NCBI GenBank assembly: GCA_947626425.1
Contig: CANQRX010000002.1
Coordinates: 1-50,322 of the forward strand
Length of the DNA stretch: 50,322 bases
Reading direction: 5' to 3'
Source: an uncultured Bacilli bacterium
Lineage (GTDB): Bacteria; Bacillota_I; Bacilli_A; RF39; UBA660
Part shown: one piece after another, positions 25,145 through 42,602 of the stretch
Numbering within the stretch: position 1 is the first letter of the stretch
Layout of the letters: each line of letters opens with the position of its first letter
Notes under the pieces: model-generated
The model's database searches: none
Told to the model about the DNA's origin: nothing
The model's input: the letters and a program-made list of their open reading frames with translations, nothing else
Made by a program: the position numbers and the translations under genes

Positions 25145-25897
25145 ATGAAAGGAAAAGCCGTGTTAATTTTATTATTTATAATTATTTTGTCATGTCATCA
25201 AGTAAATGCTGAATGCAACAATAATTTACGAAGTGAAGCTGCCAATGTAACTGCTAATTATGTATTGGGGGAAGTAGTTGTAGATAATAAAGGGGTTGAA
25301 CACCCTGAACTAGATGTGGAAAAAATTAAAGAAGAAATTCAAAACAGTGCCGTCGCAGAAAATTTATCAACAAGTGATTATACAATTGTCGATATCGTTT
25401 TATTAAAAGTTTATAATATTACAAAAAATTTATATGTGACTGTTGAAGAAAGTACGGAAAACACCTTAGATACTTACTATTACGAAAATACAAACGATGG
25501 TGAATTGACCATCCGAGTACCAGACACCGATAAAATTCGTGATTATAAAGTTCGCATTTTTTCTAACGACAATTCTTGTCTAAATGAAGAAATTACCTCT
25601 TTGCCTTCGGTCAAAACGCCAATGTATAACCCTTATTCTGAATATGAAATTTGTTTAAACCAAACTAAATATTATTGTCAACCATATGTAACTACCGAGA
25701 TCACAATCACCGAAGAACAACTGTTTGCTGAATTATACAAAGAAGATGAAAACAATAATAACAATTCAGAAATTAACCAAAAAGAAAATATTGTGGTAAA
25801 AATTTTGAAAATTGGGTTACCAATCGGAATTGGCATACTGGCTTTAATTGTAGCAATTATATCAATTAGTAAAAAAGATAGGAGGAGTGACAAATGA
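25145..25897 (+). CDS. Type-I membrane protein, paralog 1 of 3 (signal peptide, 4 conserved Cys, C-terminal TM anchor)
   Basis: MKGKAVLILLFIIILSCHQVNA/ECNNNLRSEAANV.., conserved ..KTPMYNPYSEYEICLNQTKYYCQPYVTTEIT.., and a C-terminal TM helix plus basic tail. The TTG-extended start in the ORF track is unlikely. Confidence 0.7.
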   Translation: MKGKAVLILLFIIILSCHQVNAECNNNLRSEAANVTANYVLGEVVVDNKGVEHPELDVEKIKEEIQNSAVAENLSTSDYTIVDIVLLKVYNITKNLYVTVEESTENTLDTYYYENTNDGELTIRVPDTDKIRDYKVRIFSNDNSCLNEEITSLPSVKTPMYNPYSEYEICLNQTKYYCQPYVTTEITITEEQLFAELYKEDENNNNNSEINQKENIVVKILKIGLPIGIGILALIVAIISISKKDRRSDK

Positions 25898-26628
25898 AAA
25901 AAATCGGTTATTTAATTTTAGCAATATTTTGTTTATCGGCCAAAAATGTGGTAGCAGAGTGTAATCTCGATTTAAGAACTCAAGCAGCCAATGTCAAAAC
26001 AAACTATGTTATGAGTGAAATAGTTCTTGATGAATTTGGTAATGAAGTAACAAATATAAGTGTTGAAGAGGCCAAAAAAGACATTGAAGCCCATCAAGTT
26101 GCTGAAAATGTTAATACAAGTAAGTATTCTATATCAGAAATAGTTCTTTTAAAAATTTATAATTTAACAGATAAATTGTATGTGACTGTAAACGAAAGTA
26201 AAAGTAATACTTTAACTACCTATCATTACCAAGATTCTAATAATGGCGAAATAACTATAAAAGTTCCTGATGTTGATACAATTCGGGAATACAAAGTTCG
26301 CGTCTTTTCTAATGATACATCTTGTTTAGGAGAGGAAATATCATCTCCACCTTCCGTAAAAACCCCAATGTATAATCCTTATTCCGAATATGAAGTATGT
26401 TTAAATCAATCAAAATATTACTGTCAGCCTTATGTAACAACTGAAATAACTACTAATGAAGAAGATATTTTTAATGAATTATATAAAGATGAGGCTGTAA
26501 CAGACGAGGAAGAACAAGTTAAAACTAATTATTGGAAATCTTTAAAAGTGATAATTCCTTTTCTAACTGTTTTGATCTTATTAGGAGCAATTGGTTATAT
26601 ATATTTTAAGAAAAAAGGAAAAAAATAA
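25894..26628 (+). CDS. Type-I membrane protein, paralog 2 of 3
   Basis: Start overlaps the previous stop (translational coupling). Same architecture and conserved blocks as paralog 1. Confidence 0.7.
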   Translation: MKKIGYLILAIFCLSAKNVVAECNLDLRTQAANVKTNYVMSEIVLDEFGNEVTNISVEEAKKDIEAHQVAENVNTSKYSISEIVLLKIYNLTDKLYVTVNESKSNTLTTYHYQDSNNGEITIKVPDVDTIREYKVRVFSNDTSCLGEEISSPPSVKTPMYNPYSEYEVCLNQSKYYCQPYVTTEITTNEEDIFNELYKDEAVTDEEEQVKTNYWKSLKVIIPFLTVLILLGAIGYIYFKKKGKK

Positions 26629-26642
26629 AAGAGGAGAAGCTT

Positions 26643-27401
26643 ATGAAAAAAATACTTTTTTTATTAATTTTGATGATTTATCTTACGATAGATGTCAAAG
26701 CTACCTGTAATAATCAACTCCGTTCGCAGGCTGCCAATGTAAGTGTTAATTATGTTTTAGGGGAAGTTGCAATTACCGAAGATGGTGTTGAACACCCTGA
26801 AGTTGATCTTGAAGAATTAAGAAAAACTATTGCGGAAGGAGCGAAAATAGATCCCAACTTACGGGTAAGCGATTACTTAATTGCGGACATTGTCAATTTA
26901 AAAATTTATAATTTAACAGATAAATTATATGTAACTGTCGAAGAACAAGACGAAGGAATGATTGGCACTTTTACCTATGATGATGTAGTCGATGGCGAAA
27001 TTACAATTCGTGTTCCCGATACTGAAAAAATTCGAGAATATAAAGTTCGCGTCTTTTCTAATGATGAGAGCTGTAAGGATGAAGAAATAACATCACCTCC
27101 AGCCATTAAAACCCCAATGTATAACCCATACTCGGCTTATGAAATATGTGCTGATCAAAATGCCAATAAATATTATTGTCAAGATTATGTTGTAACTGAT
27201 GTAAATATTGATGAAGATGAATTATTTAAAAATTGGAATAATGGAAATGGTCAGAATGAAAATAATTTAAGCGACCAAACAAAAAGAACTTTTAAATTTC
27301 TCCTTTTATATGTTTTGCCTGTAACATTAATAATTTTGGTAATTTTTGTAGGTATTAAAATAAAAAGAAAGAAAAATAAAAATAAGGTTAATAATTTATA
27401 G
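26643..27401 (+). CDS. Type-I membrane protein, paralog 3 of 3
   Basis: GAGGAG RBS. Same architecture (TCNNQLRSQAANV.., KTPMYNPYSAYEICADQNANKYYCQDYV, C-terminal TM plus KRKKNKNK). Confidence 0.7.
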   Translation: MKKILFLLILMIYLTIDVKATCNNQLRSQAANVSVNYVLGEVAITEDGVEHPEVDLEELRKTIAEGAKIDPNLRVSDYLIADIVNLKIYNLTDKLYVTVEEQDEGMIGTFTYDDVVDGEITIRVPDTEKIREYKVRVFSNDESCKDEEITSPPAIKTPMYNPYSAYEICADQNANKYYCQDYVVTDVNIDEDELFKNWNNGNGQNENNLSDQTKRTFKFLLLYVLPVTLIILVIFVGIKIKRKKNKNKVNNL

Positions 27402-30400
27402 GTGATGAATGTGAAAAAAATTGGTTTGTTGATAATAATTAGTTTATTAAGCATTAATGTTGTTAATGCAGCAAAAGTAAGCGATTTAGATTACTATGAC
27501 AGAGAAGAAGAAAAATACAAATTAACAGCTGATGGCTTCAGCGCTGAATCTTCAACTTTAGAAAATGATTATTTAAAACCCGGTAGTCGAATATTAACAA
27601 AATATGACGCTTATTTAAAAGATAAAAATATAGGAGCATTTTTTTGTATATCTCCTTCTAAACCACATGGCGCAACGTATACAATAAAAAGCCAAATTGA
27701 TATCGATTCAACGAGTAAATCCCAAAAAAAAGCTTTCTATGCGGCTTTACTTAAGGCCTATCAAGAATTTATCTCGAGAGGTTTTATAAAAACTAGTACC
27801 AAAAATTATGGTGATCGAACTCGACAACTTATTACTTTGGTGTACCGTTGGATTGCTAGCTACTATGGATATTTGGATACCGATTATGCCCGTGGGGGTG
27901 TTTCTGAAGATAACTATGTTATATACACATACAGTAAACGCAAAAGTTGGGGAAGTAAAAATTGGAAAGATGATAATGGTGATGGCCTAGCGACAGTTGC
28001 TAGAGATATACTTGCTAATGCAATTCGTGTTGGTAATAAAGTAAAAAACGGTAAAACAATCAGAGAATTAGCTAATAAAGGGGAACTTTGGGATATTAAT
28101 TTTAATGTAACTGCTACCGTTTTAGATAATACAGACAAAAGCAAAGTTAAAATTCAACTAGACATTGTTCCTAAAGGAGCTACGAAAGGAACAGATATAA
28201 ATTACGACGATTTTAAAGTTGAGTGTGATTATGATTTTGAGTGTAGTAAATTTAAAATGACAGGTGATATTAAAGTTAATGGAAAAAAAGGTAAAAGATT
28301 TACTTTAACCGTAAATACTAAAAATGGTCGAACAAGTGCTGCCGAAAAAGCTGGTAAACCGTATGGAATAACTATTAAAACAAATTATAATGATATTCGC
28401 GATGGGGCATTTCTTTATGAAATGACACCAGCTAGTAAATATGTTCAAGAAATGCTTTTAATTTTATATTTTCGTCCTGATTTTGAAATTATTTCCACAG
28501 AAACTCCTAGTTGGGAAGACAAATGCTACTGTCAACGTAATAGTAAAGGAAAATTGACAGGACGTTATGAATATAAAAAATATACCGAAAGTAAGGTTAT
28601 TACAGGAACAATAGATTTATTAGATACCGAGAAAGCCGAAAAATATGAATGCCCTCCACCAGAAGATTGTGGTGTAAAAACAGTTTGCCAGTGTGATTAC
28701 GATGAAAATAACGTGTTCACTAATCAATATGCCGTTACTTATAAAAGTGAAAAAGACACTAAGGTTGAAAAATTCTCAGCAACGGATACTGAAAAAAGTG
28801 AAAAATATGCCTGCCCTCCAGCAGATTCATGTGTTAAAACTACTTGCAGTTGTCAATTTGACGATAATGTCTATACTGGAAATTATGTAGTAGAGCAAAC
28901 TGAAAACGGCGAAACAACGGAAATTATTGTTTCCGCTAATGATGTAAAAGCAAGTGAATATGGCTGTCCGCCAGTTACTTATTGTAGCGAATGTTCTTGT
29001 GAAACTGACACTAAAGGTAATTTTACAGGAAATTATTTATATTATAAAAATGGTAATTTATTTGAAAAATTTAAATTAGATGATGCGACTAAAGCTACTA
29101 AATATAGTTGTCCACCAGCCACTGATTGTGCAAATGATTGTTTTTGTCAAGTAGATGAAAATAATGAATATACCGAAAAATATCAATACAATGGTTTTGA
29201 AGATGGACGTTTAGTAACCGAAGTATTTGATTTTGATGATCCACGAGCTGAAAACTATAATTGCCCAAGTAGTAAAACATGTCATCCCCAAAGAAAAGAA
29301 TGTACTTATGAAGATGATGGAACATATTATGGTAAAAATGGTGTTGAAGTAACCAAAGATGAATATATTGCTCAATGTGTAACTAGTTGTAAAACTGAAC
29401 CTACTGGTGATGGAAATACCAAGTATTATTGCAACAGTGACAGCGAACTTATAAGTGGACCAGAATGTAGTAAAGAAGAATACGAAGAAGATTGTATATG
29501 TACACCTATGAAAGAAAAATGTGATAACGGAGATACGGCTTCTTGTGAAGAATACCAAGATAAATGTCTTCCAATTCCTTCGGATTGCAGTGCCAAAGTA
29601 ACTATTCCCGATGAGTGTGCTAATTTTGATGCAGACACCATGTTAGAAGCTGAAATTGATGATGTAAATCTTGATCCTGGTTGTGGTAAAGATAACTCAA
29701 TCAAAAAATGTGTAGTTAATGGAACCGATCAAGCTGGCAACTCTTATTTACATTTTAAAAATAATTATTGTACTGTTTGGTGTAAAGAAAAATATAATTT
29801 TACGTTACCAACAGCAAGACATACTAGAAGTGGAGGTTACTTTACATTAAGTGCTAAAATAACTGGAGAAAGAACATGCTATGCTACAGGAAGTGATGAC
29901 ACAACAACTCCAATTGATGAGCCAAGATTTCATAGAGATTTAGAGGATGCCGAAGCGGCATTACAACTGGCTTACGAAAATTATATAAGTGCCAAAAATA
30001 ATAAAGAAAACTCGGAAAGAACGTTAGAAAATTTAAATAATCAAACAACAAGTATCGAAAATGCAGTATCATATGCTCAATCAGAACTTACAATTGCCCA
30101 ATCATTATATTCAAGTGCTCGATCAGCATTGTCAAGTGCCGAATCAGAATTATCAAGTGCCGAATCAGAATTATCAAGTGCTCAAAGTGCTTTAAATTCA
30201 ATACCTGAAGGTGATGAAGCTGCAAGGACAAGTGCGTTAGCTAATGTTTCTAGAGCCAGTATTAGAGTTTCAAACGCACAAACTGCTGTTCACATAGCAC
30301 AAGCTGATATTTCTAGTGCCGCATCAAGAGCACAAAGTGCCCAAAATTCTCTAAGCGATGCCATCACTGCCAGAGATAATCATTATATAAGCATAACGAA

Positions 30401-31745
30401 TACGGAAAGAAATATTGAACTCGCAAAACAAGAGATGGCAAAAAATGAAGCCTCAATGAACGACTTAAATTCCAAAATTCAAACCTTTTTCAATGAATAT
30501 AATAGTTGTGCAAGTTGGGAAGTAGAATTTAAGTTTGATCCAAAAATTGATTATTGGTATAACGAAAAATATATGGATATTCTAACCACAGGTAATAGCG
30601 GAACATTTGAAGCAGATGGAACAACATCGCTAGATAGCACTGAAGAATATTGTTCCGGAATTGCTGATGAAAATTTTGAATGTGAAAATGGCCAAACAAG
30701 CCAAGTAAAATATAAAGATCAAAATTATGTATATTGTACAATCGAAGGGTGTGTAACTAAAAGTTCTAGATTAAATGATGTAAAGTGGATTCGTAAAAAT
30801 GAAAAATCTTCTAATTCTTATCGACCTCATGCCAACTTTTCAACATCTACTGGTTTTGGAACAATAAAAAGAAATGCCCCAGAGTGTAATGGAAACGACT
30901 GTTTATTTACGAAGTTGCCTATTAATGCTTTACCAGTTGAATTATCAACCGGCCGTGGAGTATTCCCATTTGTTTTGAAATTTAGAGATATCGGTCAATA
31001 TGCTAGTGGTTCTTTAGGAAGATTACTTGGAGCAAGTCAAAGTGTTGTAACAAGCCTATCAAGAGCTGATTCAATGTGTTCAACTCCTGGTTATAAAGCA
31101 ACAACAAGTACCTCATATGTATGTGAATATATTAATGACTGCTCTGAGTGTGAAGCTGATTGTATCAATTGTGGTAGCACCCCATATGACCCTGGTGACC
31201 CATATGACCCACCTAACATACCCGAGACTGAATGTAAAGGTCAAACATGTCCTTTAACTTGCTCATCGTGTATATATGATGGTGGTAAAACACAATTTTC
31301 ATTCCGGACAGTTTCCGTAAATAATGTTTTCCCAAATTCATGCAATAAGGCCCTAAGCAACTGTCGAAAAGAAGGATATAACTGGGATACTAATAATCCA
31401 AAAGCTAAAAAAACCTTAGAAGAAATTGAGGAAAAAGGCGAGTCAGCATATCAAGAACCAGAATATTCCTATACCCTTAATCCAGGTCAATTGCAAAATA
31501 TAAGAAAATATAATGATAAAGCCGGTACATATTTAAATACAACAATTCCTGATTCCGGCGATACAGCCTTAAAATGTGAAAGATTAGATATCAATGGAAA
31601 ATTATATAATGTAAAATGTACAAGTTCCTTTTTAGACCAAAATTCTCAAACTTATTTTAGCGAACAAAAAAGAAACACAACCTTTACATTATGGGATACT
31701 AATAATGTTAATGACTTAATTGGCATCGGACCATCTTGGAAATAA
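27402..31745 (+). CDS. Giant secreted Cys-rich protein 1 (1447 aa), putative surface adhesin/fibre component
   Basis: Signal peptide KKIGLLIIISLLSINVVNA/AK. The N-terminal domain of about 370 aa is shared with 32071-35589. Five modules of about 50 aa (C-x-C ... C-P-P-x-x-x-C) lie at about 28524-29300. There is a Ser/Ala-rich helical insert, and a Cys-rich conserved C-terminal region ending GIGPSWK. No LPXTG and no C-terminal TM. The real start may be ATG 27405 or GTG 27411 (AGGTGA at 27400-27405). Confidence 0.8.
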   Translation: MMNVKKIGLLIIISLLSINVVNAAKVSDLDYYDREEEKYKLTADGFSAESSTLENDYLKPGSRILTKYDAYLKDKNIGAFFCISPSKPHGATYTIKSQIDIDSTSKSQKKAFYAALLKAYQEFISRGFIKTSTKNYGDRTRQLITLVYRWIASYYGYLDTDYARGGVSEDNYVIYTYSKRKSWGSKNWKDDNGDGLATVARDILANAIRVGNKVKNGKTIRELANKGELWDINFNVTATVLDNTDKSKVKIQLDIVPKGATKGTDINYDDFKVECDYDFECSKFKMTGDIKVNGKKGKRFTLTVNTKNGRTSAAEKAGKPYGITIKTNYNDIRDGAFLYEMTPASKYVQEMLLILYFRPDFEIISTETPSWEDKCYCQRNSKGKLTGRYEYKKYTESKVITGTIDLLDTEKAEKYECPPPEDCGVKTVCQCDYDENNVFTNQYAVTYKSEKDTKVEKFSATDTEKSEKYACPPADSCVKTTCSCQFDDNVYTGNYVVEQTENGETTEIIVSANDVKASEYGCPPVTYCSECSCETDTKGNFTGNYLYYKNGNLFEKFKLDDATKATKYSCPPATDCANDCFCQVDENNEYTEKYQYNGFEDGRLVTEVFDFDDPRAENYNCPSSKTCHPQRKECTYEDDGTYYGKNGVEVTKDEYIAQCVTSCKTEPTGDGNTKYYCNSDSELISGPECSKEEYEEDCICTPMKEKCDNGDTASCEEYQDKCLPIPSDCSAKVTIPDECANFDADTMLEAEIDDVNLDPGCGKDNSIKKCVVNGTDQAGNSYLHFKNNYCTVWCKEKYNFTLPTARHTRSGGYFTLSAKITGERTCYATGSDDTTTPIDEPRFHRDLEDAEAALQLAYENYISAKNNKENSERTLENLNNQTTSIENAVSYAQSELTIAQSLYSSARSALSSAESELSSAESELSSAQSALNSIPEGDEAARTSALANVSRASIRVSNAQTAVHIAQADISSAASRAQSAQNSLSDAITARDNHYISITNTERNIELAKQEMAKNEASMNDLNSKIQTFFNEYNSCASWEVEFKFDPKIDYWYNEKYMDILTTGNSGTFEADGTTSLDSTEEYCSGIADENFECENGQTSQVKYKDQNYVYCTIEGCVTKSSRLNDVKWIRKNEKSSNSYRPHANFSTSTGFGTIKRNAPECNGNDCLFTKLPINALPVELSTGRGVFPFVLKFRDIGQYASGSLGRLLGASQSVVTSLSRADSMCSTPGYKATTSTSYVCEYINDCSECEADCINCGSTPYDPGDPYDPPNIPETECKGQTCPLTCSSCIYDGGKTQFSFRTVSVNNVFPNSCNKALSNCRKEGYNWDTNNPKAKKTLEEIEEKGESAYQEPEYSYTLNPGQLQNIRKYNDKAGTYLNTTIPDSGDTALKCERLDINGKLYNVKCTSSFLDQNSQTYFSEQKRNTTFTLWDTNNVNDLIGIGPSWK

Positions 31746-31935
31746 ACTAAGATGGTTTTTTTGTAGTTATTAAGGTTCAAAAAATTTCTAGTTGAAAAAA
31801 GGGAAAATGTTTGGTATTATTAACCTCATATATCTGGTTGTTGAATTTTAAATAAATCAAGAAAAAGATATAAAAAATTTTAACAACTTTGCTAAATCAG
31901 AATTTATAAAAAATAAAATGGAGTATATTAAGACA

Positions 31936-31964
31936 TTGAAAAAATTAAGAGTATTTGTTATAAT
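31936..31964 (+). promoter_or_regulatory. Sigma-A-type promoter TTGAAA-N17-TATAAT upstream of giant gene 2
   Basis: Read directly, about 107 nt upstream of ATG 32071. Confidence 0.55.
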
Positions 31965-32070
31965 AAATTTATATTAACTGGGTTGGTGAAAATATGAAAA
32001 CAAATATTATTAATTTAGAGGTGTGTAATACTTTGAAAAAAAACTTAAATATGCATAGGGGGAATGTATA

Positions 32071-35000
32071 ATGAAAAAGAAGTTAACAATATTTTTGTTA
32101 AGTTTAAGTTTATTTTTGGGTGTTTGTTTAAAAAATACCCAAGCTGCCGAGGTCTATGATCGGGTTAAAAGTGGATACAAAATATCTGGAACATTTACCA
32201 ATACAGGTATTAGTTATTTTCTCGAAGTAGGTTATAAATATGGTGCTCCTAGTACCGGTAGTTATAATGCTTATAAAAATGGCATTGATGGAATATTTAT
32301 ATGTATTTCACCAGATAAAGATGCTGGAACCTATTATAAAGCGGTTACCGAAGTTAACCCAGATTCACCATCTGTTAAAAATAAAAATACGCGTGCTTTT
32401 TATGTTGCTGTAATTAAGGCATATCAAATTATGGTTGACAGTGGGGAAATTACAACTAAAAAAAGTAATGGTCGCTATTCATATACTGACCGTCAAAAAT
32501 TCTTATTAATTGTTCGTTGGTTAGCAAGTAAATATGGATTATTAGATACTAGCCACCCAAGTAGTTCAACAACTCCGGCTGGTAACTATAAAAAATATGT
32601 TTATTCTGATAGAAGCAAATATTGGAATACGTCCAATTCAACTATTAAAAGAGCTGAAGCTGTAACTAAAGCTGCGATAAAAGTTGGAGATAAAATACTA
32701 AAAGGTTCAACTTACCAAAAACTTATTGATAATGGTGATGTTTGGGGCGCTAGATGGGAAAGTACTGCTCCAACTGTCGAAACCAATGCAAAGAAACCAA
32801 ATTTAGTAACTATAAAGTTTGATGTCAAAGCTAAAAACAGTATTCAAAAAATAAATTACAAAGATTTTAAAGTAGAATGTAATTATGGTTATAAGTGTAA
32901 AGATGTAACAATTAAGACTAAAAAGGAAACTACGAAAAAAGGTAAAGAAAAACAATACATAAGTGTAAGTATTGTTGTCGATACAACTAATGGTAAAAAA
33001 CATAAAGCTCAAAATGCTGGGCAACCATATGGAGTTGTTGTTAAAACTAATTTTTATGATTACCATGATTCATCTCATTTATTCTTATTTAATCCAACAG
33101 TTAGTACAAAACAAAAGATGTTACTAATTAGAGATTATAACCAATCAATGCAAATTGTTACTAAGTTTGTTCCAGAATGGGAAGATATTTGTTCTTGCCA
33201 AAAAGATAGCAACGGCAATTACACTGGAAAATATGAGTTGAAAACAATTGTTAATGGTGTTGTAAAAACCGAAGAATTTGGTTTTAACGATAAAAAAGCT
33301 AAAAAATATGATTGTCCTGATTCTTCAAAATGTGTTAGTGAACCTAATCCATCATGTCAAACACCAGATGAAAGTGATGATGGAAATTATCATTGTAAAG
33401 ATGGTGAAGTTTGTGACGAAGAAAAATACAAAGAAGACTGTGATACAGGTAAGAAACCATCATGTCAAACACCAGATGAAAGCGATGACGGAAAATATCA
33501 CTGCAAAGATGGCGAAGTTTGTGACGAAGAAAAATACAAAGAAGACTGTGATACAGGTAAGAAACCATCATGTCAAACACCAGATGAAAGCGATGACGGA
33601 AAATATCACTGCAAAGATGGCGAAGTTTGTGACGAAGAAAAATACAAAGAAGACTGTGATACAGGTAAGAAACCATCATGTCAAATACCAAGTGAAAGTG
33701 ATGATGGAAATTATCATTGTAAAGATGGTGAAGTTTGTGACAAAGATGAATATGAAGATGACTGTTTATGCCCTGAATTAAAGGATAAATGTGAAGAAAA
33801 TCCTGATGATCCTGCTTGCGGTGAATACAAGGAAAAATGTCCAAATTGTTCAGCAACGGTTACAGTTCCAAACAATTGTAATGATTTTGATGCTGAATCA
33901 ACAGTAGACGGTGTTATTAGCGATATTAATGAAACAGCAAGTAGTTGTAATCCAACAGCTAACTTAGTTAAAACCTGTGTAATTGATAAAAAGGATCAAG
34001 CTGGTTCAAGTTTTGAAGCAACCAATGAAATAAAAAATAACCCTTATTGTAAAGTATGGTGTAAAGAAAAATATGAATTCTCATTACCAACAGCAAAATA
34101 TACTCAAAGTGGTGGTTATTTCCAATTAACAATGAAAATAGCTGCTAAAAGAGATTGTTATGTAAGTGCAGCAGATGACCCAGATAATCCAATTGATAAG
34201 ACAAAATTCTTAAGTGATTTAAGTACTGCTGAAACTGCGGTTAAAAATGCTTATAACGAATATAGTAAATTAAACAATGATGCTAATTTATCTGCTTTAA
34301 ATTCTGCTAAAGAAAAAGTGGAAAGTATTATTAGTGATTTTAATAGTTGTTCAAATGGTTGGAGTAATAATTTCGTTTATAACCCAGAAATTGAATATGA
34401 TTATTACAATGACTATTTAACTAATAGTAAAGGAACATTTGAAAAAATTGAAGGAACCGATACAATGACTAGTGAAGATACTTATTGCTCTGGAGATACT
34501 GATGAAAGTTACAATTGTAAATCAGGTGCATCAAACACTATGCAAACTGAAACTCAAAGCTATGAAAATTGTGATGCTCAAGGATGTAGTGTTAAAACTG
34601 CTCAAATAAGTACAGCTAAATGGATTCAAAAAACTAAAATAGTTGCCAATGCTCAATATCAACCAAAAGAAAAATTCTCAACTTATACAAGTTATGGTAT
34701 AATAAAAATAGATGAACCTAGATGTAATGGTAAAGATTGCTTATATACAAGACTTCCAGATAGTTCATTACCTGTTCAATTAACAACTGGTAAAGGAGTA
34801 TTCCCATTCACATTTACATTTAAAAATATTGGTCAATCAAATACTGATAATAATTTAGGTCGTCTAATTGGTTCTGATAACAGTATTGTAAAAGCCTTTA
34901 ATGAATTACCTGATGAATACCGTTGTTCAAAAGACAATGCAACTGATGCATATGGTGGATATGTTTGTCATTACATTAACAACTGTGATGGATGTGACTT

Positions 35001-35589
35001 TGAATGTGTTGGTGACGATTGTAAGTTTGAAGATGAAGAAGAAAATTGCGAAGGTCCAACTTGTCCATTAACATGTGTAAACTGTGTATTTGATGGTCAA
35101 GAAGCAACTTATACCTTTAGAGCTGTGTCCCTTGCTAATTTATTCCCAAATGAATGTGATGAAAATTCTGATAGTAGTGAATGTCGTACAACCGGCTATA
35201 ACTGGGACGTTGGTGAAAAAGCTAGTTTAACTAAGAAAGCAATCCAAGAAGAAGGTAATAATATCTATATTGAACCAGAATATTCATATACAATGAATTC
35301 CTCACAACTAAGTGCTATTAGAGAATATAATCAAAAAGTTGGTTCATATTCTAATACCACAACTGGAGCATTCTTTAACAACGAACCAGCATTGAAATGC
35401 AATGTTGTTGAAATAAATGGAATTCAATATGAGGTTGAATGTTTATCTACATTCTTATCAAACGGAAATGGTAAATACTTTACCGAAAATAAACGAAATA
35501 CTGAATTTGAACTATGGTCAAATACAGAATATTGCTTAAGCGGTAGCTGTTTAGATCGTAAAAAAGGCGTAGGACCGTCTTGGAAGTAG
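32071..35589 (+). CDS. Giant secreted Cys-rich protein 2 (1172 aa), paralog of 27402-31745
   Basis: GGGGGA RBS and signal peptide (..CLKNTQA/AEV). Shares the N-terminal domain, one C-x-C...C-P module and the entire Cys-rich C-terminal region (..YCKVWCKEKYEFSLPTAKYTQSGGYF.., ends GVGPSWK) with protein 1. Contains four 36-aa tandem repeats. Confidence 0.8.
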   Translation: MKKKLTIFLLSLSLFLGVCLKNTQAAEVYDRVKSGYKISGTFTNTGISYFLEVGYKYGAPSTGSYNAYKNGIDGIFICISPDKDAGTYYKAVTEVNPDSPSVKNKNTRAFYVAVIKAYQIMVDSGEITTKKSNGRYSYTDRQKFLLIVRWLASKYGLLDTSHPSSSTTPAGNYKKYVYSDRSKYWNTSNSTIKRAEAVTKAAIKVGDKILKGSTYQKLIDNGDVWGARWESTAPTVETNAKKPNLVTIKFDVKAKNSIQKINYKDFKVECNYGYKCKDVTIKTKKETTKKGKEKQYISVSIVVDTTNGKKHKAQNAGQPYGVVVKTNFYDYHDSSHLFLFNPTVSTKQKMLLIRDYNQSMQIVTKFVPEWEDICSCQKDSNGNYTGKYELKTIVNGVVKTEEFGFNDKKAKKYDCPDSSKCVSEPNPSCQTPDESDDGNYHCKDGEVCDEEKYKEDCDTGKKPSCQTPDESDDGKYHCKDGEVCDEEKYKEDCDTGKKPSCQTPDESDDGKYHCKDGEVCDEEKYKEDCDTGKKPSCQIPSESDDGNYHCKDGEVCDKDEYEDDCLCPELKDKCEENPDDPACGEYKEKCPNCSATVTVPNNCNDFDAESTVDGVISDINETASSCNPTANLVKTCVIDKKDQAGSSFEATNEIKNNPYCKVWCKEKYEFSLPTAKYTQSGGYFQLTMKIAAKRDCYVSAADDPDNPIDKTKFLSDLSTAETAVKNAYNEYSKLNNDANLSALNSAKEKVESIISDFNSCSNGWSNNFVYNPEIEYDYYNDYLTNSKGTFEKIEGTDTMTSEDTYCSGDTDESYNCKSGASNTMQTETQSYENCDAQGCSVKTAQISTAKWIQKTKIVANAQYQPKEKFSTYTSYGIIKIDEPRCNGKDCLYTRLPDSSLPVQLTTGKGVFPFTFTFKNIGQSNTDNNLGRLIGSDNSIVKAFNELPDEYRCSKDNATDAYGGYVCHYINNCDGCDFECVGDDCKFEDEEENCEGPTCPLTCVNCVFDGQEATYTFRAVSLANLFPNECDENSDSSECRTTGYNWDVGEKASLTKKAIQEEGNNIYIEPEYSYTMNSSQLSAIREYNQKVGSYSNTTTGAFFNNEPALKCNVVEINGIQYEVECLSTFLSNGNGKYFTENKRNTEFELWSNTEYCLSGSCLDRKKGVGPSWK
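33349..33780 (+). repeat. In-frame tandem repeat, 4 x 108 bp (36 aa: PSCQTPDESDDG-N/K-YHCKDGEVCDEEKYKEDCDTGKK)
   Basis: Units start at 33349, 33457, 33565 and 33673. Units 2 and 3 are identical. Units 1 and 4 share a different set of synonymous variants, and unit 4 diverges at its 3' end. Confidence 0.9.
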
Positions 35590-35598
35590 GAGGATATT

Positions 35599-36042
35599 AT
35601 GAAAGAATCTTATTGGGGTTATTGGATAATTGTACTAGGTGTATTTATCATCGTCATAATGATGTTAATATCTAATGTGACAACGACTAATACTCAAGAC
35701 TATTATTTAATAAAAGAAGTATCAGAAGCTTCGATGGTAGATGCAATAGATTATGCGTATTATCGTCAAAGTGGTGAATTAAGAATTAATCGTGAAAAAT
35801 TTGTAGAAAGCTTTTTAAGACGCTTTGCTGAAAATGTTTCACTTAGTACATATACTGTAAATTTTTACGATATATATGAAGCACCACCTAAAGCAAGTGT
35901 TGAAGTTATAACCAAAAGCAATACTTATAATATAAATTCTGATGCCCAAAGTTTTGATATTGTTAATAGAATAGATGCAATATTAGAACTAGATGGTACT
36001 GCAGAATCAGGAACGTTTGATAACTTACAATCAAATCCTTAA
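35599..36042 (+). CDS. Small N-terminally membrane-anchored protein (possible pseudopilin-like or assembly factor)
   Basis: AGGAGG RBS 10 nt after the giant gene stop. MKESYWGYWIIVLGVFIIVIMMLIS hydrophobic N-terminus, then a soluble domain of about 115 aa. It sits directly upstream of the Tad-like core. Confidence 0.55.
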   Translation: MKESYWGYWIIVLGVFIIVIMMLISNVTTTNTQDYYLIKEVSEASMVDAIDYAYYRQSGELRINREKFVESFLRRFAENVSLSTYTVNFYDIYEAPPKASVEVITKSNTYNINSDAQSFDIVNRIDAILELDGTAESGTFDNLQSNP

Positions 36043-36080
36043 AAAATTGCTTTAAAAAATATTAGTTAGGAGGAATAAAA

Positions 36081-36914
36081 ATGGGAAATTTATTATCAAA
36101 ACTTAAAAGGTTTTTAGAAAATAAAAATACAGTAACAATTTTATGTGTAATCGCGGGAATTGCAGTTTTGTATATTGGTTATAATTGGCGGGTTAATTCA
36201 GCTATTAGTCCGACATCTATTCCTTATGCAAAAACTGCTTTACCTTCACGTCATGTTATAACATCAGATGATATTGGTTATATGGAAGTTTCTAGTGCGG
36301 TCGTTAATCGTAGTTCTAATATTATTAGAAATTCCAATTTAATTATTGGTAAAGAGGTAATGTATGGTACTACCATTCCTCAAAATAGTTTTTTCTATGA
36401 TAGTGCAATTACCGATTCTAATTTACAACCAGATGATGTTATGGCTGATATTCCAAACGGCTATACATTGTTTACTTTATCAGTAGACTTACATACTACT
36501 TATGGTAACTCTATTTATCCTGGAAATTATATTGATTTATGGTTTAAGGGTGTAGATGATTACAACAAAATAATGTATACCAACTTAATAAGAAGTATTA
36601 AAGTTTCCGATGTTCGGGATAGTAATGGTCAATCTGTTTTTGAAACATCTATGGAAAAAAGAACACCATCTGAATTATTATTTGCAGTTCCTGATGATAT
36701 GTATTCTTTGCTTAAAAAAGCTCAATACATTGGTGGGGTAGAAATAATACCAGTTCCAAGAAACCGTAATTATACTGCCAATCCTGGAGAAACAGAAGTT
36801 GCTAGTGATTATGTAAAAGAATTTATTTTATCAAAAACCGCAATTATTCCAGATGAAAATATAAGTACAAACACAAATGATAATAACGATGAAAACAATA
36901 ATGTAGAAGAATAA
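36081..36914 (+). CDS. CpaB/RcpC-like Flp pilus assembly protein (SAF-domain protein)
   Basis: AGGAGG RBS and an N-terminal TM helix. This is followed by a SAF-like segment (IPYAKTALPSRHVITSDDIGYMEV...IIGKEVMYGTTIPQNSFF). It lies immediately upstream of a CpaF/TadA-type ATPase. Confidence 0.5.
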   Translation: MGNLLSKLKRFLENKNTVTILCVIAGIAVLYIGYNWRVNSAISPTSIPYAKTALPSRHVITSDDIGYMEVSSAVVNRSSNIIRNSNLIIGKEVMYGTTIPQNSFFYDSAITDSNLQPDDVMADIPNGYTLFTLSVDLHTTYGNSIYPGNYIDLWFKGVDDYNKIMYTNLIRSIKVSDVRDSNGQSVFETSMEKRTPSELLFAVPDDMYSLLKKAQYIGGVEIIPVPRNRNYTANPGETEVASDYVKEFILSKTAIIPDENISTNTNDNNDENNNVEE

Positions 36915-36933
36915 CAAGAAAGGGGTGCCGGCC

Positions 36934-38061
36934 ATGAATGATGCTATATTTTCGCAATTAGACTTTGGGCCAATCGAAGAATTTTTAAGAAATGAAGATG
37001 TAACAGATATTTCTTATAGTAATAATGGCTGTGTTTGGTTAAAATCACTTTCTCAAGGTTGCTATAAAGTTGAACGACCTGAAATAAATAATGCACTTAT
37101 GGAAAAATTAGCATTTCAGTGTGCAAATGTTATGGGTAAAACATTTAACATGGCCCATCCTTTCTTAGATGCAGAAAGTGCCGAATTACGTTTAAATTTT
37201 GTTCATGATTCCATTGCTACAAATGGAATTGCTTGCGTTATCCGTAAAACACCAGCCAAAATCCGATTAAATAAAACTAAATTATTAGATGAAAAATACG
37301 TTTCCGAAAGTGTTCATGATTTTTTGATTAAATGTGTAGAAGGTCATGCCAATATAATTGTCAGTGGAGAAACTGGTTCCGGAAAAACCGAATTAGTTAA
37401 ATACTTAGCTTCACATACCAAAGAAAACGAAAAAGTTATTACCATTGAAGATACATTGGAGTTACATTTAGACCGAATTTTTCCTCATCGGGATATTGTG
37501 GCAATGAAAACTAATAATATTGCGAGTTATTCAGATGTTTTAGTAACATGTATGCGTCAAAATCCCATTTGGATATTACTTTCCGAAGTTCGTAGTGCTG
37601 AAGCGGTTATGGCCGTCCGTAACTCGATTTCTTCAGGGCACCACATTTTATCAACAATTCACTCCGATAAAGCAAGTTTAATTCCGATGCGTATGTATTC
37701 TTTAGTTGAATCAAACATTGATGTCGAACAGTTTGTCGCGACAATTCACCGATACGTCCAAATAGGAGTCTATGTAAAAGGTTATTTAAGTAAAGAACTG
37801 GGTAGATTTCAAAGAGAAATATTGGAAGTTTGTGAATTTTATGTTGATGATAATAATAAGCCAAAAACAAATATTATATTTAAAAAAACTTTAACAGGTG
37901 AGATTACTATGAATAATCCTACCGAACATTTAAGAGATTATTTAGGTATTTCAGGGGTTCTTTTACCAGATGACATTTTTGCATCAGAAAAAGATAATTC
38001 TGATTCTAGTCAAATGGCTAATAATACTTCATCTGATATTGAGCAGATAGAAACTTTATAA
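36934..38061 (+). CDS. CpaF/TadA-type secretion ATPase (VirB11/GspE superfamily)
   Basis: Walker A VSGETGSGKTE, ITIEDTLEL, Walker B-like IWILLSEVRSAEA, and His-box-like HHILSTIHS. Size of about 375 aa is typical of TadA/CpaF. Confidence 0.8.
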   Translation: MNDAIFSQLDFGPIEEFLRNEDVTDISYSNNGCVWLKSLSQGCYKVERPEINNALMEKLAFQCANVMGKTFNMAHPFLDAESAELRLNFVHDSIATNGIACVIRKTPAKIRLNKTKLLDEKYVSESVHDFLIKCVEGHANIIVSGETGSGKTELVKYLASHTKENEKVITIEDTLELHLDRIFPHRDIVAMKTNNIASYSDVLVTCMRQNPIWILLSEVRSAEAVMAVRNSISSGHHILSTIHSDKASLIPMRMYSLVESNIDVEQFVATIHRYVQIGVYVKGYLSKELGRFQREILEVCEFYVDDNNKPKTNIIFKKTLTGEITMNNPTEHLRDYLGISGVLLPDDIFASEKDNSDSSQMANNTSSDIEQIETL

Positions 38062-38077
38062 GAAGGAGAGAGGACCA

Positions 38078-38974
38078 ATGATTGAGCTTATAATTTTAAT
38101 AGCCTTAGCAGTTTTTGCTTTATCATACCGATTTAATAATGGAGAAAATATTTACAAATTTTTTGTTACCAAAATTTCAATGGCTTATGATCGATATGCT
38201 CCATATAGTTTTAAAACGGTTCGGGAAAAAACCAAAGAATTAGGAAAAGAGTACACTGCTAAAGATTATTTAACCCAAGTAGCGCTCTTTGTTGCCGTTG
38301 CTGGAGGAATATCTTATCTATATTTTTACAATATTATTATTTCTGCTATTTATGCAGGTGTAGCGGTTTTGTTTATCCCGTTTTTAGCTTATTTAAGGTG
38401 TCAAAAAGCTTATTCAGAATTTTTATTCGAGCAAACCCAGGTTTATACAACCAATGTTATAATGGAATTTAATACCACTCAAAGTTTTGTAAAATCTTTA
38501 GAAGGCGTTCGGGATTCTGGAATCTTAGAAAATCCTCTTTTGGATGATGTTAAAACAATGATTGATATGTCTTACCAAAATGGAACAATTGATGAATCAA
38601 TAGAATTCTTTAATAAAAAGTATCCTTACTATATGGTAAAAAATATGCACCAATTATTTTTACAAATAACAAAAGAAGGTGCAAAAGACTCTGGTGAAGC
38701 CTTAGAAAATATGTCCATGGATATCGATGCCTTAGTTGAAGGTGTTTATCGAGACCAAATCGACAGAGCAAACTTTCACAAACGATTTATAACTTTTGGA
38801 TTAGCCTTATTTCTATTAGTAATGGCCATGCAATTTCTACTCGGAACAGAATCTTATTTAAAATTATTAGATATGTGGTATGTACAAGTAGTCCTTCACT
38901 TAATAATCTGGATTAACTGTTTCTTTCTATACCGCGGCGAACGTTTCTATTATGAAGATGTGGGGGTAGAATAA
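38078..38974 (+). CDS. TadB-like platform protein (T2SS-F-type membrane protein)
   Basis: 298 aa. An N-terminal TM helix, a helical cytoplasmic domain, then C-terminal TM helices. Position is directly after the ATPase. The call rests on topology and context. Confidence 0.5.
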   Translation: MIELIILIALAVFALSYRFNNGENIYKFFVTKISMAYDRYAPYSFKTVREKTKELGKEYTAKDYLTQVALFVAVAGGISYLYFYNIIISAIYAGVAVLFIPFLAYLRCQKAYSEFLFEQTQVYTTNVIMEFNTTQSFVKSLEGVRDSGILENPLLDDVKTMIDMSYQNGTIDESIEFFNKKYPYYMVKNMHQLFLQITKEGAKDSGEALENMSMDIDALVEGVYRDQIDRANFHKRFITFGLALFLLVMAMQFLLGTESYLKLLDMWYVQVVLHLIIWINCFFLYRGERFYYEDVGVE

Positions 38975-39762
38975 TGTACTGGGAAATAATTACCTTAGCA
39001 ATTATAATATTGTTTGTTTTAAATTATACCGGAAGGATTTCTGCTTCTCGTTTCGTTAGCGATAATGAAGTAATCTTTCAAAAATTAAAAGAAAAAGATT
39101 GGGATTTTTATGTAAAGATTAGATATGGAGATACGGTAAACCCAGACTTCTTATTTACCAAAAGAGTTCAAAACGGGTTAATAATAATTGTCATCATGCT
39201 TTGCTTCTTTATTTCTAATTTATCTTATGTAACCATTTTGTTTAGTTTAATTGCCGGCTATTTAGTATTTAAAATGCAATATAATAATTTAAAGAATTAT
39301 TATAAAAGACATTTACATGAAATAGACGCCATGTTACCACATTATTTAAAAAGTTTGGAAATTTTAATTCAACATTACACCGTTCCAGTAGCTTTAGGAA
39401 AATCAATTGAAGATGCCCCAGCTATATTTAAAGACGGTTTACAAGAATTAATTAGTCAAATCAACAGTGGGGATAGTTCAATTAATCCTTATATGCAATT
39501 CGCCAAAGTTTATCCAGTTCGTGATTCAATGCGAATGATGCGTTTATTATATCGTTTATCATTAGGACGACAAGAACATAAACAAGAACAATTAATTACT
39601 TTCTCAAGAACCATTTCTAATTTACAACAAAAAGCAAGAGAAATAAAATACAAAGAACGTCTTGACAAAATGGAAAAGAAAACCATGCAAATGCTAGTTG
39701 TAACCGGTGTTGGGGTAATGATATTACTAGTTTTAGCGGTTTTAATGATGATGAATATGTAA
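38974..39762 (+). CDS. TadC-like platform protein (T2SS-F-type membrane protein)
   Basis: 262 aa. Start overlaps the previous stop (TAATG). Same TM - cytoplasmic domain - TM topology as the preceding gene. Confidence 0.5.
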   Translation: MYWEIITLAIIILFVLNYTGRISASRFVSDNEVIFQKLKEKDWDFYVKIRYGDTVNPDFLFTKRVQNGLIIIVIMLCFFISNLSYVTILFSLIAGYLVFKMQYNNLKNYYKRHLHEIDAMLPHYLKSLEILIQHYTVPVALGKSIEDAPAIFKDGLQELISQINSGDSSINPYMQFAKVYPVRDSMRMMRLLYRLSLGRQEHKQEQLITFSRTISNLQQKAREIKYKERLDKMEKKTMQMLVVTGVGVMILLVLAVLMMMNM

Positions 39763-39794
39763 GACAGCTTTTTATAAGTTGTTTTTATTTTAAA

Positions 39795-39826
39795 TTGACA
39801 AACGGGGGGGGGGTATATGATAAAAT
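39795..39826 (+). promoter_or_regulatory. Putative promoter whose -35/-10 spacer contains a G10 tract
   Basis: TTGACA (39795-39800), then AAC plus G10. Candidate -10 elements are TATGAT (39816-39821, spacer 15) or extended TG-A-TAAAAT (39818-39826, spacer 20). Confidence 0.5.
39804..39813 (+). repeat. Homopolymeric G10 tract (intergenic)
   Basis: Counted directly. The in-frame stop at 39827-39829 shows it is not part of the 39851 ORF. Confidence 0.9.
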
Positions 39827-39850
39827 TAATTAAGAGTAAGGTGTTGGAAT

Positions 39851-41695: not shown

Positions 41696-41766
41696 ATTGT
41701 CTTTTCGACAAAATTGTGTATATTTTTTGATCTTTAATCCACACTATAAGTGGAAAGGAGATCTCT

Positions 41767-42519
41767 ATGTTAAAAGAAGTAAAAGCATTTTTTCTTACTT
41801 TAATTGTCGGAATAGTCGCTTTAACTCTAAATGTTAATGCTGCATCAACTGCTACAGTAAATTCTCAAGCTGATTTAAAAGAAGCCTTAGATGATGAAAG
41901 TATTACCACAATTATTTTAGGTAGCGATATTGATACTACGGAAAAAATTAATATTGTTCGACCTGTTACAATTGATGGTCAAAATCATACTATTCGTTAT
42001 GTAGGAACTTTTGGTGATGAAGGAAGTAGAGACAATACTGTTTGGTCTGGAATTTATGTTTTACAATTTTATAAAACAACTGGAACCTTAAAAGACATTA
42101 AATTAACAGGCGGGAATGCTGGCCTTTTACTTAATGGTTCAGAAGTAACTTTTGAAGGAACAATTGATGTTTCTGGTAATGGTTTTGGCGGTATTGAATT
42201 AGGCCAAGGTGCTAATGTAACCGAAACTCCTCATTTAAAATTAGAAGGCGATGCCGAAATTGTTAACACAACCGAAGCCGAAGATGCTCCAACATTATGG
42301 GTTCCTGATGATACTAAAACCGCAATTTTAGAAAGTAATGGAATGCAAGAAACAATATCAGCTGGCGAAGAATTAACTATTATAGAAGCCCTAAGTTATT
42401 TTAATGTCCCAACTGAAAATCCTCAAACAGCCGATTTTAACAAATTATCAATTGTTTTAGGATTTATGAGCTTATTTATCTTTGCTTTAACTATGTCAAA
42501 GATTATGTTAAGAAAATAA
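41767..42519 (+). CDS. Secreted protein with class-B-sortase-type sorting signal (NPQTA + TM + basic tail)
   Basis: GGAGA RBS and signal peptide ..LTLNVNA/AST. The C-terminus NPQTADFNKLSIVLGFMSLFIFALTMSKIMLRK has the motif at 42418-42432. Confidence 0.7.
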   Translation: MLKEVKAFFLTLIVGIVALTLNVNAASTATVNSQADLKEALDDESITTIILGSDIDTTEKINIVRPVTIDGQNHTIRYVGTFGDEGSRDNTVWSGIYVLQFYKTTGTLKDIKLTGGNAGLLLNGSEVTFEGTIDVSGNGFGGIELGQGANVTETPHLKLEGDAEIVNTTEAEDAPTLWVPDDTKTAILESNGMQETISAGEELTIIEALSYFNVPTENPQTADFNKLSIVLGFMSLFIFALTMSKIMLRK

Positions 42520-42576
42520 GGTATTGAAATTAACTTTCGGTTCTTCCAAAAGTTTCCGAAAAGGCTGAATATTCGA

Positions 42577-42602
42577 AGTAGATAGAAATATCTGCTTTTT
42601 TA
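42577..42602 (+). terminator. Rho-independent terminator closing the long + strand gene array
   Basis: AGTAGATA-GAAA-TATCTGCT 8-bp stem (one G-U pair) followed by T6. Confidence 0.6.

Follow-up and report, generated by a model that had tools for sequence, protein, structure and literature searches.

A predicted secretion-related operon with a DUF5411 gene has been reported from gut Clostridia (Roseburia, Ruminococcus, Eubacterium) (Miller, Stern & Burstein 2022, PMC9523054). For the conjugative plasmid pLS20, genes 36 and 38-41 have been catalogued as "unknown", and Gram-positive conjugative elements are said not to form pili (PMC8557374); the pLS20 protein Tie is a demonstrated cell-wall-located conjugation adhesin (PMC8092201, PMC11730352). 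Here we analyzed a 50,322-nt stretch of DNA from an uncultured Bacilli bacterium (contig CANQRX010000002.1, positions 1 to 50,322; hereafter the window), in which a gene cassette at 25145-39762 encodes three paralogous membrane proteins (par), two giant Cys-rich secreted proteins, a DUF5411 protein and a set of Tad-like motor proteins. By sequence comparison, this core is homologous to cassettes of other Firmicutes in which CpaF/VirB11 is linked to DUF5411, and it is conserved and vertically inherited in uncultured gut Bacilli. We read it, with a probability of roughly 55%, as a Tad-like type IV filament cassette that is marked by DUF5411 and probably deploys a variable adhesin, by a mechanism that we infer from its genes.

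The cassette and its conservation in gut Bacilli

An earlier note on this DNA had described a nearly gapless row of 13 co-directional genes, 17 kb in length, acting as a single unit. The row on the + strand is real and comprises twelve consecutive genes at 25145-42519 by the calls of open reading frames (ORFs). The intergenic distances along it are -4, 14, 0, 325, 9, 38, 19, 16, -1, 88 and 71 nt, mostly within -4 to 38 nt, with exceptions that include 325 nt between the two giant genes and 88 nt before the gene of a 614-aa protein; both of these gaps hold terminator- or promoter-like elements. The single unit did not hold up. The conserved unit ends at 39762, and among 82 related loci the 614-aa gene is found in six, the sortase-B substrate at the end of the row in none and its sortase (SrtB) in two. 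In the window the cassette is thus the segment 25145-39762, ending with the gene of membrane protein C.

The cassette opens with three genes on the + strand, parA (25145..25897), parB (25894..26628) and parC (26643..27401), whose translations share 47-55% pairwise identity (parA 52-55% with parB and parC). Each product is a type-I membrane protein of 244-252 aa, with a signal peptide, a ~190-aa ectodomain containing 4-5 Cys, a C-terminal transmembrane helix and a basic tail. The stop codon of parC abuts the start of giant1 (27402..31745, +), which encodes a 1447-aa secreted protein with 61 Cys. Its paralog giant2 (32071..35589, +), 34-40% identical and encoding 1172 aa with 58 Cys, occupies a slot that is syntenic in all relatives, and both proteins end in GPSWK. 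The small membrane protein whose gene starts 10 nt after the giant2 stop is a DUF5411 protein of 147 aa (35599..36042, +; Pfam PF17424, E 4.4e-58). It is followed on the same strand by a 277-aa CpaB/RcpC-like protein (36081..36914) with an N-terminal transmembrane helix and SAF-like and RcpC-like parts, a 375-aa ATPase of the CpaF/VirB11/FlaI clade (36934..38061) with the Walker A motif GETGSGKT, and two polytopic membrane proteins that are candidate platform proteins, termed B (298 aa, 38078..38974) and C (262 aa, 38974..39762). The paralogous par and giant families, the small membrane gene, the CpaB-like protein and the ATPase were all as the earlier note had described them.

A terminator-like hairpin of 12 bp with a following T-run (31728..31758, +) overlaps the giant1 stop codon. 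Upstream of giant2 lies a promoter-like site (TTGAAA-17-TATAAT with a TG, 31936..31964, +), the best sigma-70-like match in the region, identified by an 11/12 consensus match only. It is a near-consensus match to an extended -10 promoter. The block of three par genes and giant1 is probably a separate, duplicated transcription unit.

A species-level scan (one genome per species) with the 298-aa protein B found at least 434 genomes with a relative, of which the best 80 loci were inspected; hit tables and gene orders cover 82 related loci, and the comparison of rates covers 51 complete loci. Nearly all of the best 80 loci come from metagenome-assembled genomes labeled uncultured Bacilli, Tenericutes or Erysipelotrichaceae, from the guts of rabbits, humans (Hadza), chickens, mice and ruminants. 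The consensus order is a CPBP protease gene on the opposite strand, par, giant, DUF5411, one or two CpaB-like genes, ATPase, B, C, two or three short pilin-like genes (pil), mp1 and mp2, and a gene termed Z. Hits were obtained in 57-64 of the 82 loci for par, 64-68 for giant, 72 for DUF5411, 76 for the CpaB-like protein, 81 for the ATPase, 82 for B, 81 for C, 68 for pil, 67 for mp and 66 for Z, the shortfalls being mostly due to contig ends. The linkage of Tad-like genes with the giant and par families, which the earlier note had proposed as its own test, is kept in 80 different species genomes. A word-indexed homolog search starting from the giant gave six relatives, two of them on long contigs with the same neighbors, and its repetition with an 8-sequence profile added nothing beyond these six.

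The coupling of the cassette to a fast-evolving giant secreted protein is invariant. The distance from the giant stop codon to the DUF5411 start codon is at most 21 nt in 66 of 66 loci (9 nt in the window), and that from par to giant is at most 19 nt in 62 of 63. One par and one giant are usual among the relatives, compared to three and two in the window. Mean pairwise identity is 79% for the ATPase and for B, 75% for C, 66% for DUF5411 and for Z, 56% for the CpaB-like protein and ~52% for pil and mp, but only 31% for par and 29% for the giant, a contrast that is the pattern expected of a conserved engine with an exposed, diversifying cargo.

Upstream of parA, a divergent gene encodes a CPBP/Rce1-like intramembrane protease (24321..25016, -; Pfam Rce1-like E 6.6e-15), a candidate accessory protein. 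Of the 49 related loci that extend far enough, 32 have a CPBP homolog on the opposite strand ahead of par, and a pair of metallophosphoesterase and CPBP genes (23466-25016, -, in the window) precedes the cassette in 35 loci of different species. The conservation of this pair could reflect functional linkage or plain synteny; the sameness of these neighbors across species argues for vertical chromosomal inheritance. The window itself has a G+C content of ~28% and looks chromosomal, with genes for Dus, RecG, a UmuC/YolD pair and phosphate propanoyltransferase. Megablast of the 18-kb locus against plasmid and phage collections gave no match, and a search of PHROGs revealed no phage relation.

Homologous cassettes on Firmicute plasmids

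When the ATPase was searched by tblastn against plasmids, the best matches were "CpaF/VirB11 family" proteins of Firmicute plasmids. Among annotated sequences, the closest relative found lies at 160.6-169.5 kb of the Priestia koreensis FS-1 plasmid (NZ_CP061869.1), where the genes encode, in order, an SLH protein, a 993-aa immunoglobulin (Ig)-like protein, a DUF5411 protein (31 bits, above the cut-off), a protein with SAF and RcpC parts, a ParA-like protein, a CpaF/VirB11 ATPase, a T2SS-F (type II secretion system F) protein, a hypothetical 279-aa protein and a DUF4320 protein. As in the window, the large surface protein, DUF5411, the CpaB-like protein, the ATPase, B and C are collinear, with phmmer scores against the window proteins of 14 bits for DUF5411, 61 for the CpaB-like protein, 172 for the ATPase, 34 for B (47-110 with a profile) and 50 for C. 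The counterpart of B is annotated by PGAP as "type II secretion system F family protein" and matches Pfam T2SSF with an E-value of 3.4e-5 and 24.2 bits, against a cut-off of 25.2. By contrast, the Priestia cassette is plasmid-borne, inserts a ParA-like gene before the ATPase and has DUF4320 in place of mp1/mp2; its large protein is of an Ig-like/coiled-coil type following an SLH protein, with neither a Cys-rich giant nor par. At the head of the Priestia cassette (L089 1461-1979) lies the gene of a 172-aa polytopic protein with a PGDTK motif resembling the GxGD(V/T)K of prepilin peptidases; for want of a Pfam A24 match, it was discarded as a candidate for such an enzyme.

The pLS20 family of conjugative plasmids, represented by a plasmid of B. 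subtilis natto and by pZB18 of E. faecium, has the order adhesin, one to three small genes, p36, p37, p38, p39, p40 and p41. The adhesin is the thioester-domain protein Tie in pLS20 and a 1209-aa SpaA-like protein in pZB18. Of the following proteins, p36 matches Pfam DUF5411 (E 1.4e-5), p37, annotated as "VirB11", gives 144-158 bits to the window ATPase, p38 gives 58 bits with the B profile and a faint T2SSF match (E 0.19), and p39 gives 18 bits to C. p40 is a DUF4320 protein, whose pZB18 counterpart matches mp1/mp2 at 14-16 bits, and p41 is a duplicated 47-aa protein with a single transmembrane segment and a 50-aa counterpart in pZB18 (L088 12167-12480; L087 8011-8163). Some of these plasmid scores are individually weak, and the E-values refer to tiny local databases. 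Given the complete collinearity, the pLS20/pZB18 module is likely to be homologous to the core of the window cassette. It differs from the window in being embedded in a type IV secretion system (T4SS) operon with VirD4, VirB4 and VirB6, in lacking a CpaB-like gene, and in an adhesin with a thioester or isopeptide domain that is unrelated in sequence to the giant. Pro31 of p41 and of its pZB18 counterpart falls on the conserved WP (positions 30-31) of the relatives' pilin-like family; there is no statistical similarity, and we note this as a lead only. A CPBP gene also lies two genes upstream of the pZB18 adhesin. We considered the CPBP protease as a processing enzyme of the cassette and set it aside, as its evidence is synteny only (the 32 of 49 loci) and its sequence bears no similarity to that of the pZB18 CPBP.

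Every version of the cassette carries a different predicted large surface protein upstream of DUF5411, and these proteins are mutually unrelated in sequence. The composition of the locus, called undescribed in the earlier note, is so for giant and par; the core had been flagged in Clostridia (PMC9523054), is annotated on the Priestia plasmid and corresponds to pLS20 genes 36-40.

Comparison with Tad/Flp and other surface systems

Compared by description, the Clostridia operon (PMC9523054) shares with the window a CpaF-type ATPase, a PilC/GspF-like membrane protein, DUF5411 and a protein with adhesion/invasion-type domains. It belongs to another class of bacteria and has an internalin-like adhesin instead of the Cys-rich giant.

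The window cassette resembles the Tad/Flp systems, such as Caulobacter Cpa and Aggregatibacter Tad, in its CpaF/VirB11/FlaI-clade ATPase, the CpaB/RcpC-like protein and two putative platform proteins of ~260-300 aa. The related loci add further likenesses, namely very short putative major subunits, two paralogous putative minor subunits and a 330-aa protein at the place expected for TadZ. However, the Flp motif is absent, no protein matches TadE, TadZ or T2SSF at Pfam or NCBIfam thresholds, and there is no TadV in the locus and no TadZ in the window. The ATPase, short at 375 aa, is equidistant from VirB11, CpaF and FlaI, and DUF5411, par and the Sec-secreted giant come in addition. Secretin and TadD are also lacking, as expected for a monoderm.

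A comparable case is the pilus cluster of TANB77 (PMC11680825), which was recognized mainly by structure and context. Like the present cassette, it is divergent and Tad-like, occurs lineage-wide in an uncultured gut clade and encodes pilin-like proteins of unknown family. The two are non-homologous, as the TANB77 cluster has a 640-aa TadA, a fused 693-aa TadC-TadB, TadZ and CpaE, and no DUF5411, par or giant. A functional analogy may be drawn to PilY1/PilC of type IVa pili, a pilus-tip adhesin of ~1000-1200 aa that has a Sec signal and is encoded beside minor pilins. No relation in sequence or fold to the giant was found; the latter is Cys-rich, with 36-aa repeats and a GP[SA]WK C-terminus. 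As for competence (Com) and type IV pilus systems, no cassette protein matches N_methyl. A sortase-assembled pilus is not indicated either, since the window has a class B sortase and one NPQTA substrate only, not a class C sortase with LPXTG pilins.

Motor and DUF5411 proteins

The ATPase matches Pfam T2SSE with an E-value of 1e-25, and a search against the PDB gave VirB11, CpaF, FlaI and afGspE as best matches, all at E ~1e-16 to 1e-15, whereas it is clearly less like PilB, PilT and GspE. Its scores against the curated models are 97 bits for TadA (TIGR03819, cut-off 373) and 113 bits for VirB11 (TIGR02788, cut-off 250), and its start codon at 36934 is backed by gene calls on other contigs. 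The CpaB-like protein of the window scores below the cut-off with Pfam RcpC (E 5e-4) as well as TIGR03177 (E 1.5e-4); its orthologs reach E 1e-9 to 1e-11 over positions 5-230 of the 262 of the CpaB model, also below the curated cut-offs. It appears to be a distant CpaB/RcpC member, with a match that is weak but real.

For B and C, which the earlier note had called TadB- and TadC-like, there is no direct sequence match in Pfam, NCBIfam or the PDB, including searches of profiles against the PDB. An exhaustive phmmer search with B against 1.84 billion representatives gave 242 hits, and ten remote full-length relatives showed no T2SSF match. The assignment of B to the T2SS-F family of platform proteins is by transitive homology, the best evidence being the Priestia counterpart. 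Alignment of B with C by hhalign, with remote sequences added, gave an E-value of 1.2e-4 and a probability of 55% over an equivalent region, which marks C as a distant paralog and hints at a TadB/TadC-like pair.

DUF5411 consists of a short polar N-terminus (MKESYWG), a long hydrophobic helix and a small α/β head. The AlphaFold2 model (51 sequences; predicted local distance difference test score, pLDDT, 71) has a helix of 44 residues (5-48), two short helices and a three-stranded sheet, and would be compatible with a pilin-like "lollipop", making DUF5411 a candidate pilin-like adaptor. The orthologs vary in their C-terminal extensions, which measure 100-400 aa. An ortholog of 546 aa (L007 4557-6197) bears C-terminal SH3 and Peptidase_M15 (cell-wall peptidase) domains. 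DUF5411 as a carrier of peptidoglycan hydrolases was nevertheless rejected, because only this protein fits; in nine further long variants, of 243-485 aa, the added part belongs to no family.

Pilin-like genes of the related loci

Directly after C, the relatives carry two or three pilin-like genes of 76-95 aa, mp1 and mp2 of 150-180 aa and Z of 326-344 aa. The N-termini of these proteins follow a shared pattern, M[KR][EQ][AS]xxG plus a hydrophobic helix: MKEATG in pil (which begins MKEATGELNxTVV), MREAIG in mp1, MRQAIG in mp2 and, similarly, MKESYWG in DUF5411, each polar, ending in Gly and followed by ~20 hydrophobic residues. mp1 and mp2 are paralogous (E 1.5e-49), the N-termini of pil and mp align in register over 25-29 residues (E ~4e-4 to 8e-4), and DUF5411 shows a weak in-register match to the mp2 N-terminus (E 1.5e-3). 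Each pilin-like protein contains 4 or 6 Cys. None of pil, mp and DUF5411 matches Flp, TadE or N_methyl, one pil matching archaeal Pilin_N faintly (E 0.066); the label "pilin-like" denotes the N-termini, the size and the position. Z has no match in Pfam, NCBIfam or the PDB. The PDB does hold a TadZ structure.

The earlier note had remarked that Flp pilins, TadE/F and TadV are missing. None is detectable in the window, but the system is not pilin-less, as the relatives carry pilin-like genes. The motor genes of the window are intact, and the ATPase, B and C are 79-83% identical to those of relatives (L005), the same as between relatives. Considering these intact, conserved motor genes and the recurrent insertions after C, we infer that the subunit genes lie elsewhere in the genome. 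In four related loci (L017, L019, L067 and L079), 3-4 kb are inserted after C with the pilin genes retained beyond, and in another (L042) no pilin genes were found within 9 kb of C.

One related locus (L017 18294-20255) also encodes a 653-aa protein, a fusion that combines the canonical N-methylation motif of type IV pilins (MKKGFTLVELL...) with a large C-terminal region. On account of this fusion, the genomes of the relatives carry classical type IV/Com-type pilins as well, and presumably a PilD-type peptidase.

Giant and par proteins

The giants have a Sec signal peptide followed by a variable N-terminal region of ~400 aa, in which one Cys is nearly invariant within a [FY]C.[DN]P motif. The C-terminal region of ~550 aa is better conserved, with many invariant Cys and the terminal GP[SA]WK. 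The tandem repeats of both giants are possible sites of copy-number variation: four Cys-rich 36-aa repeats in giant2 (33349-33765; 108-nt period x 3.9, 93% matches, in frame) and an in-frame 21-nt x 5.3 repeat (SAESELS-type) in giant1 (30074-30185), within an Ala/Ser-rich coiled-coil insert. This coiled-coil region gives the sole weak family match of the giants, to a PgrA surface-exclusion domain (E 2.4e-7, below cut-off).

Apart from this, giant and par belong to no family of Pfam or NCBIfam, nor does the giant to any of PHROGs, and profiles of the N- and C-terminal halves of the giant (32 sequences each) found no match among PDB sequences. The view of the earlier note that these two families fit no described pilus or secretion system is borne out, as no placeable relatives were found. 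A thioester domain at the giant N-terminus was considered and rejected: conservation of the partner Gln is lacking, and no match to a TED was obtained.

Proposed function and rival explanations

In the proposed mechanism, the ATPase hexamer would dock on B and C and polymerize the short pilin-like subunits, encoded right after C in the relatives and, for the window's genome, outside the window; the filament would cross the wall through a CpaB ring. The giant would be exported by Sec and then loaded onto, or pushed out by, the filament. DUF5411 may be the adaptor or tip subunit, a role we propose because translational coupling of the giant and DUF5411 genes is invariable. Once at the surface, the giant would act as a fast-evolving adhesin, much as PilY1 does with minor pilins or Tie with the products of pLS20 genes 36-41. 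The par proteins may be membrane-anchored partners of the giant, with holding, maturation or self-exclusion as possible tasks. The strongest argument that the job of the engine is to present large surface proteins is that the surface protein upstream of DUF5411 is a different one in every version of the cassette.

A number of observations speak against this proposal. The filament, surface display and binding are predictions from the genes. The giant has no recognizable adhesin domain, and its AlphaFold2 model (giant2, 8 sequences) is poor (pLDDT 46), with nothing found by Foldseek in the PDB at E ≤1e-3. A crude mirror-tree comparison of par and giant gave a partial r of 0.06, that is, no co-evolution signal beyond the species signal. 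The window proteins have no Pfam Flp, TadE or T2SSF match. The DUF5411 model matches no PDB fold significantly, pilins included, so that a pilin fold is not established. The N-termini of the predicted subunits lack the Flp G/XXXXEY and N-methyl motifs. Moreover, tblastn and motif searches found no homolog of pil, mp or Z within the 50-kb window, there is no A24 prepilin peptidase (TadV/CpaA) in the window or among the called genes of the loci inspected, and the terminator-like site stands between giant1 and the motor genes.

Four other explanations were weighed against the Tad-like filament with its adhesin. In a T2SS-like piston, a short pseudopilus would expel, and perhaps release, the Sec-exported giant, which would remain unattached, and no pilus would be exposed. 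This would suit the ordinary Sec signal peptide of the giant, which lacks a pilin N-terminus, the very short pilin-like proteins (76-95 aa), the classification of the DUF5411/CpaF operon as secretion-related (PMC9523054) and the reports of pLS20-family plasmids, which have homologous genes, as devoid of pili (PMC8557374, PMC11730352). However, the two or three major-pilin-like paralogs, with their 4 or 6 Cys and an identity of ~52%, look like exposed subunits. Furthermore, Tad relatives make true pili, and we know of no precedent for T2SS-type secretion in monoderms; overall we regard the piston as unlikely. It is improbable that the locus is inactive in the window's genome, its pilin, minor-pilin and Z genes having been lost by an insertion after C and the rest being relics. 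Those genes, directly after C in 66-68 of the 82 relatives, are indeed missing from the window, and the junction after C holds unrelated genes with poly-G tracts. Yet all ten cassette ORFs are intact, the ATPase, B and C have kept the 79-83% identity that is also seen between relatives, the pilin genes persist beyond the 3-4-kb insertions of L017, L019, L067 and L079, and L042 likewise lacks them within 9 kb of C. In type IV systems, moreover, pilin genes frequently lie apart from those of the machinery.

Quite improbable is a module for mating-pair formation, domesticated or left over from a conjugative element, that is a relative of pLS20 genes 34-41 and would serve cell contact in DNA transfer rather than adhesion to a host or substrate. 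Conjugative Firmicute plasmids carry the closest annotated ATPases, the collinear, homologous genes 36-40 of pLS20 and pZB18 lie beside a mating adhesin, and a YolD/UmuC pair, common on mobile elements, is nearby. Against it, neither the window nor the flanks of the 82 loci contain T4SS parts (VirB4, VirD4, VirB6-like), a relaxase or an integrase, the metallophosphoesterase and CPBP neighbors are the same in 35 loci, which indicates vertical inheritance, and the closest version, that of Priestia, is on a plasmid typed as mobilizable and without mating-pair-formation genes. Finally, the cassette could build a Tad-like pilus for DNA uptake or nutrient scavenging in an auxotrophic, genome-reduced gut bacterium, the giant being incidental. 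Tad pili are linked to DNA uptake in Liberibacter (PMC8513845), and the extreme conservation of the motor across the lineage suggests a core physiological role. We consider this very improbable, as the relatives also encode N-methyl pilins of Com/T4P type (L017), the usual uptake system of monoderms, no ComEA/ComEC linkage was seen in the loci, and the invariant translational coupling to a hypervariable giant would be left unexplained.

Beyond the reading of the cassette as a Tad-like filament deploying an adhesin, it might constitute a separate branch of type IV filaments, with its own class of subunits (MKEATG/ELN N-terminus), divergent versions of the platform and TadZ-like proteins, and DUF5411 as adaptor, deploying interchangeable giant adhesins through the Gram-positive wall. 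The supposedly "pilus-less" pLS20-family plasmids would then build a pilus-like filament that presents Tie, and the cassette would be a core attachment organelle of genome-reduced gut Bacilli. We offer this wider proposal tentatively, and on balance doubt it.

Genes outside the cassette

Downstream of C and separated from it by the 88-nt gap, a + strand gene encodes the 614-aa protein, which has an N-terminal transmembrane helix and no match in the PDB, so that the lectin-like character given to it in the earlier note is unconfirmed. Its N-terminal ~200 aa are paralogous to the products of three tandem genes (12491-13105, 13325-13951 and 14091-14768), which have 204-225 aa, are 62-66% identical and match no family; its C-terminal ~400 aa are paralogous to the products of genes at 21426-22661 and 46682-47938. 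The three tandem genes encode signal peptides ending in QSYALW(S/T), which we take to be reminiscent of SipW-type (TasA-like) signals. The copies at 12.5-14.8, 21.4 and 46.7 kb, put forward earlier as satellites of the giant, par and motor families, match only the two halves of the 614-aa protein.

Three G10 tracts (21362-21371, 39804-39813 and 46618-46627), the only G/C homopolymers of at least 7 nt in the window, lie at the 5' ends of the genes for the 411-, 614- and 418-aa paralogs. Those at 21362 and 46618 are inside short leader ORFs encoding a signal or transmembrane peptide, and in the 46.6-kb copy leader and body are in different frames, a G9 or G12 restoring an ORF of 466-467 aa. The tract at 39804 forms the spacer of a promoter-like element, TTGACA-G10-TATGAT, in the 88 nt that precede the 614-aa gene. 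Only two poly-G tracts (≥8 nt) occur across the 1.35 Mb of related loci, L040 17769 and L041 19723, both just upstream of genes of the 614/411/satellite family, so that the association is conserved across species. The 614-aa family looks phase-variable by slipped-strand mispairing, and unrelated to the cassette.

The last gene of the row (41767-42519, +) encodes a 250-aa protein with a pectate-lyase-like adhesive domain, an NPQTA motif, a transmembrane segment and a basic tail. Facing it on the opposite strand is the gene of a class B sortase (43191-44009, -; TIGR03064, 171 bits). The two make, by sequence, a self-contained pair of sortase and substrate that is absent from the related loci, and the earlier assignment as a sortase-B substrate is upheld. 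The terminator assumed behind it at 42577-42602 is a hairpin with a T-run, but it is AT-rich and weak, with a 9-bp stem, and the terminator scan gave no call there. Elsewhere in the window, two tandem 544-aa genes (14886-16520 and 16536-18170) both encode AAA-ATPase_like and PD-(D/E)XK_9 domains with identical nuclease-domain scores, which suggests a very recent duplication.

Significance

The kind of system, a Tad-like type IV filament, is known; what is new are two unplaced, conserved accessory families, giant and par, and the link to Gram-positive conjugation. The analysis provides a working annotation of Pfam DUF5411, and possibly of DUF4320, as components of a Tad-like system. The homology with pLS20 genes 36-40 is testable in B. 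subtilis, and bears on how Gram-positive conjugation systems, supposedly devoid of pili, present their mating adhesin. Relatives of B occur in at least 434 species-level genomes, and the whole cassette is kept in the 80 best loci that were inspected. Altogether, the contrast between a motor with 75-79% identity and a giant with ~29% points to a core, probably host- or partner-facing surface machine of these uncultured bacteria.

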